DNA from: Ignavibacteria bacterium
GTDB taxonomy: Bacteria > Bacteroidota > Ignavibacteria > Kapaibacteriales > UBA2268
Length of the DNA: 64,000 nucleotides
NCBI GenBank assembly: GCA_016844745.1
Contig: JAERMQ010000009.1
Coordinates: 7,184 to 71,183, forward strand
Direction: 5' to 3'
Position numbers and translations under genes: made by a program. Positions within the stretch are counted from its first letter, which is position 1. Each line of letters starts with the position of its first letter. Under the pieces are notes generated by a model, which made no database searches, was not told the origin of the DNA, and was given only the letters and a program-made list of their open reading frames with translations. This document shows positions 48,481 through 48,944 of this stretch, piece after piece.

Positions 48481-48555
48481 GGGCCCGTAGCTCAGCTTGG
48501 TTAGAGCGCACGCCTGATAAGCGTGAGGTCGGTTGTTCAAGTCAACTCGGGCCCA
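48481..48555 (+). tRNA. tRNA-Ile (anticodon GAT)
   Basis: Acceptor gggcccg/cgggccc, anticodon loop ctGATaa, T arm ggttgttcaagtcaactc. Hand-folded. Confidence 0.8.
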
Positions 48556-48764
48556 CGGTTTTAGAAGATAGAACATAGAAATAGAAGTAGAAGTAGGGTA
48601 AGGTTAATTTTTATTAGTACATTTTGCAATGAATACCATCATTTCATTAAAATATAAAATGGTGGTTATATGAAGCTAATATATAACAATACCAAAATAA
48701 ATATAATAAAAATCGACCTTACTCTACTTCTATGTTTTACTTCTAAGTTCTATGTTCTAAAACC

Positions 48765-48837
48765 GGGCCTATAGCTCAATTGGGAGAGCGCCAGATTTGC
48801 ATTCTGGAGGTTAGGAGTTCGAGCCTCCTTAGGTCCA
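48765..48837 (+). tRNA. tRNA-Ala (anticodon TGC) with a G3:U70 identity pair
   Basis: Acceptor gggccta/taggtcc gives the G3·U70 wobble characteristic of tRNA-Ala. Anticodon loop ttTGCat. T arm aggagttcgagcctcct. Confidence 0.8.
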
Positions 48838-48944
48838 CGGGGTTATAGAAATAGAACATAGAAAAAGAAGTAGAAAAGGTTAATTTTTAATTAACCTTTT
48901 TTTATCATATACTTAAATTTTTGGTTGAGATACAAAAACTGAAT

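Follow-up and report, generated by a model that had tools for sequence, protein, structure and literature searches.

The genes for tRNA-Ile(GAT) and tRNA-Ala(UGC), in that order, are the classic content of the internal transcribed spacer (ITS) between the 16S and 23S genes of a ribosomal RNA (rRNA) operon, or rrn operon. The processing stems of such operons pair sequences that flank each rRNA, not the trailer of one tRNA with the leader of the next. Here we analyse a tRNA-Ile/tRNA-Ala pair found in a 64,000-nucleotide stretch of DNA from an Ignavibacteria bacterium (assembly GCA_016844745.1, contig JAERMQ010000009.1, positions 7,184 to 71,183), referred to below as the window. The pair matches an rrn ITS in its two tRNAs and their order, and its precursor would likewise hold a long duplex, a would-be RNase III substrate. 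It differs in having neither rRNA genes nor their remnants, in possessing a promoter and a terminator of its own, and in that the duplex is made from one tRNA's trailer and the next tRNA's leader, both supplied by a dispersed repeat. Our preferred reading, to which we assign a probability of about 0.55, is that this is a tRNA operon flanked by a lineage-specific repeat module, and that the hairpin in its spacer is a processing stem built from copies of that repeat.

The repeat can be compared with two groups of described elements. Like the repetitive extragenic palindromic (REP) sequences and bacterial interspersed mosaic elements (BIMEs) of enterobacteria and the BOX elements of Streptococcus pneumoniae, it is short, extragenic and high-copy, and is found in intercistronic gaps and after genes. 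It is also modular in the same sense, with constant outer stems and an inner cassette of variable unit number, as with boxB; many extragenic copies are present, and the mosaic consists of an outer stem that encloses a palindromic interior in some elements and a module cassette of 4–9 units in others. Unlike those elements, the module itself is not palindromic, so that the imperfect-palindrome unit is lacking, and one of its subtypes sits on mature tRNA termini with a fixed polarity, an attachment for which we know of no precedent in REP, BIME or BOX. No REP-associated tyrosine transposase (RAYT) or other transposase was identified. The short tandemly repeated repetitive (STRR) heptanucleotide sequences of heterocystous cyanobacteria offer a second likeness, as they too are tandem 6–7-nt non-coding units of variable copy number, lineage-specific and without an assigned function. 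Unlike STRR sequences, the array described here has a unique, non-repeated anchor (CGGTTW), keeps to one polarity and adjoins a defined neighbour, a tRNA end or else a hairpin stem. A limited literature search returned no paper on tRNA-abutting repeats, and the motif string appeared only in unrelated primers. As far as we know, bacterial repeats whose copies stop precisely at tRNA termini, always in one polarity and in two genomes, are not a described class.

Results

The locus has the appearance of one dicistronic, self-contained tRNA operon, consisting of a promoter, tRNA-Ile, a spacer of ~210 nt, tRNA-Ala, a module copy and a terminator. ARAGORN places tRNA-Ile(GAT) at 48481–48556 and tRNA-Ala(TGC) at 48765–48838, both on the plus strand, and the two genes match Rfam RF00005 with 67.3 and 68.0 bits, respectively. 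A73 lies at 48555 in tRNA-Ile, for which CCA is not encoded, and at 48837 in tRNA-Ala, which carries a G3:U70 pair. A putative promoter of the Bacteroidetes type (48404–48435, plus strand), with a −33 TTTG at 48404–48407, a 20-nt spacer and a −7 TAATTTTG at 48428–48435, stands 45 nt ahead of the tRNA-Ile gene, and the predicted start falls ~40 nt before tRNA-Ile. The strict motif TTTG-N19-21-TAnnTTTG occurs six times in the window against 1.6 times in shuffles, with five of the six directly 5′ of gene starts, and the TAATTTTG box is also found ahead of tRNA-Lys, tRNA-His and the tRNA-Asn of two other Ignavibacteria; promoters of the Bacteroidetes type thus appear to be those used in the window. 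No TAnnTTTG box was found in the Ile-Ala spacer. Downstream of tRNA-Ala, a repeat listing and folding reveal a predicted bidirectional intrinsic terminator (48874–48907), a 12-bp hairpin AAAAGGTTAATT/AATTAACCTTTT followed by T7, which a simple terminator scan missed because the stem has too few G-C pairs. It would also serve a convergent carbonic-anhydrase-like gene (48945–49487, minus strand; Pfam). The features expected of an independent tRNA operon, namely its own promoter upstream, a terminator downstream and no other genes inside, all seem to be in place. A first-pass annotation of the window had made its reading of the locus depend on co-transcription of the Ile trailer with the Ala leader, and as far as the sequence tells they are co-transcribed, given the single canonical promoter 5′ of tRNA-Ile, the absence of one from the spacer and the terminator after tRNA-Ala. 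The GAPDH encoded in the window is 100% identical to that of a metagenome-assembled genome labelled Ignavibacteria bacterium, with the next best hit at 78%; the organism is also represented in IMG metagenome 3300021064 (Ga0206225) and in raw-read runs SRR13434397 and SRR7072770. Downstream of gap, the three nearest homologue loci (75–78% identity) have pgk or other genes, and no tRNA pair, module or REP-like element.

At the Rfam gathering score no rRNA family is matched anywhere in the 64 kb, the four tRNAs being the sole matches. Between 47900 and 49000 no rRNA fragment was detected even at E <= 10; the only matches there were generic hairpins hitting microRNA models below threshold. The first-pass annotation had described the pair as free of rRNA genes, while allowing that one might flank it just outside the range that could be recognised. 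The description holds for the whole of the 64 kb, which leaves a distance of more than 15 kb on the downstream side, and of over 48 kb on the upstream side, to the nearest possible rRNA gene.

The odd look of the locus arises because three copies of a repeat module fill the flanks of the tRNAs. The module is ~40–60 nt long and comprises an anchor, CGGTTWTAGAA (W = A/T), followed by 4–9 TAGAAG/TAGAACA units, within which the motif ‘tagaagtagaa’ is found. An alignment of 13 independent copies shows little or no variation at ~30 positions among the first 37. In the window, TAGAAGTAGAA at <= 1 mismatch gives 19 hits where 1.1 are expected, and the pattern GGTTWTAGAAN{1,2}TAGAACATNGAA gives five where 0 are expected. 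There are six module copies, all intergenic, and three of these flank the tRNAs (at 48556 on the plus strand, 48764 on the minus strand and 48839 on the plus strand). Copy 1 (48556–48616, plus) forms the Ile trailer, where the transcript carries the purine strand and the CGGTTTTAGAAG anchor abuts A73. Copy 2 (48704–48764, minus) is inverted and forms the Ala leader, ending ...TTCTAAAACC directly before G+1 of tRNA-Ala. Copy 3 (48839–48875, plus; purine strand) forms the Ala trailer and is 96% identical to copy 1, as anticipated by the first-pass annotation, which had the Ala trailer open with the same motif. The three remaining copies (27203, plus; 29407, minus; 36745, plus) are cassettes inside long REP-like hairpins, and they account for the motif that had been noticed at 36750 and in palindromes of the nos operon.

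The pattern GGTTWTAGAAN{1,2}TAGAACATNGAA was then scanned against 185,579 representative genomes, and yielded only four true copies, all in the metagenome-assembled genome (MAG) ‘FCB group bacterium SPRUCE 626’ (Ignavibacteriota; JBEKWK01), whose CheB is nearest to Ignavibacteria/Kapabacteria proteins. Each of the four stops precisely at the 5′ nucleotide of a tRNA gene (Arg-CCT, Arg-TCG, Arg-ACG and Leu-TAA), in the polarity of the tRNA-Ala leader of the window (...TTCTA(A/T)AACC immediately before G+1). At the SPRUCE 626 Leu-TAA gene a canonical promoter box lies upstream of the module, which would thus be transcribed there as a leader. A scan of metagenomes with a junction-free pattern recovered the metagenome of the window itself, in which contig L021 is identical to window 27100–27300. 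In that metagenome, the 64-nt gap from the stop codon of nuoK to +1 of a tRNA-Val(CAC) gene is wholly module (L028 343–406, the same as L010 659–722), with no terminator, a layout suggestive of co-transcription with the nuo genes. Four other Ignavibacteria loci have neither a tRNA nor tRNA-Val plus module after nuoK; the gene downstream of nuoK is not conserved, so no claim of insertion can be made at tRNA-Val. The metagenome scan also supplied two further copies of the REP-associated kind, and a scan of viral contigs for the module pattern gave 0 hits. Matches in Sulfurimonas, Sulfotelmatobacter and several metagenome contigs were rejected as chance hits or unrelated microsatellites. Separately, gut contigs assigned to Acutalibacteraceae, Segatella copri and Bacteroidales (L003 ~4058, L006 ~599, L008 ~497) carry arrays of GGTT(A/T)TAGAA-(C/T)ATAGAACATAGAAC heptamers. 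These start with GGTTWTAGAA as the module does, but are not beside tRNAs, and may be either kin of the Ignavibacteria module or convergent microsatellites.

Eight of the 13 independent copies lie within 0–3 nt of a mature tRNA terminus, and the anchor always points toward the tRNA. 5′ ends account for six of them (Ala, Val, Arg-CCT, Arg-TCG, Arg-ACG and Leu-TAA) and 3′ ends for the other two (Ile and Ala). The chance of finding at least eight of 13 copies at tRNA termini is about 1e-22 or less, so that the association of the module with tRNA ends, raised as a possibility in the first-pass annotation, is supported. We refer to these eight as tRNA-type copies, and to the five that are cassettes in REP-like hairpins as REP-type copies. 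The first spacer after TAGAA is 2 nt long in seven of the eight tRNA-type copies but 1 nt in all five REP-type copies (Fisher p = 0.005), and the tRNA-type copies of the window are 86% identical to the tRNA-type copies of SPRUCE 626 compared with 80% to the REP-type copies of their own lineage. These data point to the tRNA-associated form being a separate subfamily common to the two genomes. Across 42 alignment columns the copies in the Ile trailer and the Val leader (L010) show 100% identity, and the tRNA-type subfamily seems to have been homogenised or to have spread recently, on either side of the tRNA.

The Ile-trailer and Ala-leader copies form the two arms of a hairpin (48556–48616 and 48704–48765) with 57 bp, including 4 G-U pairs, broken only by single-nucleotide mismatches. 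Complementarity is 87–90% over the 61-nt arms, with a duplex energy of −66 kcal/mol. The ~210-nt spacer as a whole folds at −80 kcal/mol, compared with −29.7 ± 3.4 kcal/mol in shuffles (z = −14.9). Pairing of the Ala leader with the Ala trailer, which could compete, reaches only −32.9 kcal/mol against −66 kcal/mol for the Ile trailer with the Ala leader. The arms enclose an AT-rich apical loop of 87 nt (48617–48703, plus strand), for which the fold shows a small internal 10-bp hairpin and which has no second copy in the window. The complementarity of trailer and leader noted in the first-pass annotation is therefore real, but more extensive than the ~48 bp given there, and the loop is shorter than the 120 nt that had been estimated. 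On its own the module has no self-complementarity (0 kcal/mol), and hairpins arise only from the REP-like elements that host it or from inverted module pairs. The six leader copies have C/G ratios of 2.75–11, with 1–4 G in 49–68 nt; a solo module in a 5′ leader is a structure-free, G-poor CU tract.

Discussion

What can be read most directly from the DNA is a stand-alone tRNA operon, a repeat family precisely attached to tRNA ends, and a hairpin of two inverted copies of that repeat. The module appears to be part of a modular interspersed-repeat system of this Ignavibacteriota lineage, in which a tRNA-type exists beside a sister REP-type. Under our preferred reading, the Ile-trailer and Ala-leader copies, being inverted and co-transcribed, would cause the precursor to fold into a 57-bp RNA duplex. 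An RNase III-type enzyme would most likely cut this duplex and so separate the two pre-tRNAs, since any bacterial RNase III would be expected to cleave such a structure, after which RNase P and 3′ trimming could finish at the junctions of module and tRNA. The processing stem would in that case have been put together out of copies of the repeat, with no rRNA operon as its source. Where the module stands alone in a 5′ leader, its CU tract would presumably be removed by RNase P.

Several points weigh against a processing stem. The co-transcription of Ile and Ala, the RNase III cleavage and the removal by RNase P are steps that we infer, and a weak sigma-70-like match in the loop of the spacer (48624–48653) makes a separate start for tRNA-Ala possible. 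There are no compensatory changes between the arms: the Ile-trailer arm matches the consensus of the family, and it is divergence of the Ala-leader copy that produces the mismatches, so there is no sign of selection on the pairing itself. Six of the eight copies at tRNA ends are solo and unable to form a leader-trailer duplex, which means that a processing stem cannot be the general role of the family, and tRNA-Lys and tRNA-His in the window show no module copy at all. The sample is also small, comprising 13 copies on short contigs that were retrieved with search patterns derived from the copies in the window.

The exact placement of the module at tRNA ends may reflect either targeted insertion or selection on pre-tRNA flanks. 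A broader proposal, which we regard as speculative and are inclined to doubt, is that the tRNA-type module is a cis-element marking tRNA boundaries: either the trace left by a mobile or recombinational mechanism directed, on both sides and with fixed polarity, at the exact mature termini of tRNA genes, or a sequence-specific pre-tRNA flank. In the latter form it could be a factor-binding, Rho-loading or processing signal that replaces the canonical proximal arrangement of tRNA promoters.

The preferred reading has to be set against four others. The first-pass annotation had suggested, as one of two possibilities, a relic rrn ITS. On this view the pair would once have had 16S and 23S on either side, and the RNase III stems would have outlasted the loss or relocation of the rRNA genes. 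The order Ile(GAT)-Ala(UGC) and the presence of a long stem are what such a relic would show, but we consider this origin most improbable. Neither a 16S 3′ end nor a 23S 5′ end, nor any remnant of them, flanks the pair, and there is no rRNA gene in the 64 kb. Matches to boxA (TGCTCTTTAACAA, <= 3 mismatches) are no more frequent than chance (36 hits, 35 expected, for an E. coli consensus that may not fit this phylum), and the boxA-like match at 48339 is located upstream of the promoter of the tRNA operon. The operon has a canonical promoter and terminator of its own, the stem joins a tRNA trailer to the leader of the next tRNA in a way that rrn stems do not, and its arms are repeat copies that also occur at Val, Arg and Leu tRNAs, which are not known in rrn spacers, and inside REP-like elements. 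The genome papers of I. album and M. roseus mention no more than a single rrn operon and 45 tRNAs. A different possibility, which we judge rather unlikely, is that the 210-bp spacer (48556–48765) is a selfish foldback insertion, a non-autonomous element resembling a miniature inverted-repeat transposable element (MITE) that landed between adjacent tRNAs; the solo copies would then be decayed halves, and the hairpin would have no role and be merely tolerated. Like MITEs and foldback elements the spacer is AT-rich, non-coding and bounded by long terminal inverted repeats (61 nt), and the genome is rich in repeats, the 64 kb holding eight REP-like hairpins as well as a MITE-like family of 300 bp. 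The identity of the Ile-trailer and Val-leader cores suggests recent spread or gene conversion, the lack of compensatory evolution in the stem fits a structure without a role, and the module at the SPRUCE 626 Leu-TAA gene resembles an insertion of ~55 nt between a canonical promoter and the tRNA. Unlike MITEs, however, the spacer has no target-site duplication at 48555/48766 (flanks ...CCCA / GGGCC...), and no second copy of the full-length 210-bp unit or of its 87-nt centre turned up in the window or the scans, nor any second pair of copies among the scan hits. Most members are solo arms whose ends coincide with tRNA +1, a regularity not expected of random decay; the tRNA-type is conserved in two MAGs and distinct from the REP-type, and the module is on no viral contig.

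The other two explanations give the module a role in transcription. It might act as an insulator that loads Rho, in the manner of a Rho utilization (rut) site, on transcripts running toward the tRNA, whether from sense read-through or antisense; at the Ile-Ala operon, pairing with the trailer copy would mask the one in the leader, and RNA polymerase would continue into tRNA-Ala. A rut site is ~60–80 nt of unstructured, C-rich, G-poor RNA, and the composition and predicted lack of structure of the six leader copies fit this description. Read toward the tRNA, the tract has a C every 6–7 or 13 nt, and it often comes just after a hairpin and U-run, as at the SPRUCE 626 Arg-CCT and Arg-ACG genes. 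The CU-rich strand runs toward the tRNA in all eight tRNA-end copies, and no intrinsic terminator was seen, by eye, 3′ of the tRNAs with a 5′ module. We nevertheless find this improbable, because rut sites require a composition and not some 30 invariant or near-invariant positions, a rut site right before an unprotected tRNA risks terminating that very tRNA, the exact abutment to +1 is left unexplained, and REP-type copies occur in both orientations within the nos operon. Quite improbable, in our view, is a signal at the level of DNA, an alternative promoter or activator array at a fixed distance from +1 that replaces the TAnnTTTG promoter. Five of the six tRNAs preceded by a module have no TAnnTTTG within 200 nt, while the box is present at every examined tRNA without a 5′ module (Lys, His and Ile, and the tRNA-Asn of two relatives); at two SPRUCE 626 tRNAs the module alone separates a strong upstream terminator from +1. 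An invariant TATGTTCT box stands 13 nt before +1 in five of the six cases (Leu has in addition a second box at 6 nt) and 6 nt before it at Ala only, a spacing that resembles that of the canonical box at His and Lys. Against such a signal, the module contains no TTTG, TAnnTTTG or good sigma-70 hexamers, the number of units varies from 4 to 9 so that upstream spacing is not fixed, and transcription from the mirrored 3′ copies would run antisense through the tRNA. The module that fills the gap between nuoK and tRNA-Val is consistent with read-through, and the REP-type copies bear no consistent relation to gene starts. A sigma-70 promoter inside the module was also considered and rejected for want of convincing hexamers. 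The Rho-loading and promoter alternatives each fit parts of the pattern, but fail on the mirrored 3′ copies or on the conservation of sequence.

For annotation, the locus illustrates that a stand-alone Ile/Ala pair with a long stem need not be a decayed rRNA operon, as the stem here comes from repeat copies. Should the placement at tRNA ends be due to targeting, it would point to a mechanism of insertion or gene conversion that reads tRNA gene structure; should it be due to selection, it would identify a lineage-specific signal in the leaders and trailers of pre-tRNAs in Ignavibacteriota, a phylum in which, to our knowledge, RNA processing has not been studied experimentally. There is also a parallel with the 3′ external transcribed spacer of E. 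coli glyW-cysT-leuZ, which acts as a sponge for small RNAs, in that an excised piece of pre-tRNA could pair with complementary RNAs, and the nos mRNA carries the module in both orientations. The sequences are unrelated, and the likeness is one of analogy only. The presence of the module in intercistronic gaps of the nos (N2O-reductase) genes could affect mRNA processing in an environmentally relevant pathway.

Other features of the window

Eight REP-like long hairpin elements, all of them intergenic, are present in the 64 kb, at 14143–14224, 26183–26277, 27183–27280, 29309–29424, 36723–36831, 42390–42486, 48076–48172 and 60538–60619. They have in common the outer stem agagaaa(t)ccccc(c)ta(a)cccc / ggggt(t)agggggg(a)tttctct. 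In its basic form the element is a near-perfect hairpin of ~45 bp (−78 kcal/mol); where there is a cassette, the module takes the place of the interior of one arm. Three elements carry a REP-type cassette: 27183–27280 (plus strand) in the nosF-nosY gap, 29309–29424 (minus strand, 9 units) in the nosL-nosD gap, and 36723–36831 (plus strand) between divergent genes. Three REP-like elements in all lie within or just past the nosZ-L-D-F-Y cluster, the two with cassettes occupying intercistronic gaps. Adjoining the nos cluster and one of the REP-like elements there is also an intergenic 33-nt tandem repeat in four copies (TGTTTGACTATnTGTTGCATTTCATTTTTGATA, 25917–26059).

Just 5′ of the tRNA operon lies a MITE-like composite repeat of ~300 bp (48000–48295, plus strand), with subterminal inverted repeats TGTCATTCTGAA / CAGAATGACA and, at its centre, the module-less REP-like hairpin at 48076–48172. 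Further copies occupy 42314–42600 and 60461–60741, with 82% identity among the three, and fragments of the right end are found at 4078–4115 and 19851–19888. Between the copy at 48000–48295 and the tRNA-Ile promoter there is a terminator-like hairpin (CCGTTTCA/TGAAACGG followed by T5; 48359–48403), preceded by a weak sigma-70-like match at 48311–48338. The hairpin could delimit a very short transcript, or could simply be a terminator for read-through from gap.

At tRNA-Lys, the canonical promoter TTTG-N20-TAATTTTG (20842–20878) stops just 4 nt before +1, which predicts a transcript start that coincides with or adjoins the mature 5′ end, and hence a nearly leaderless tRNA. A long inverted repeat based on ‘cacaaagggcacaaag’ is located just 3′ of tRNA-His (23730–23850). 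Finally, the 3′ part of the open reading frame at 59917–60411 (60202–60414) encodes a highly repetitive, acidic D/E/W-rich tract, with GAAGA(T/C)GA repeats recurring at a period of 9–24 nt.

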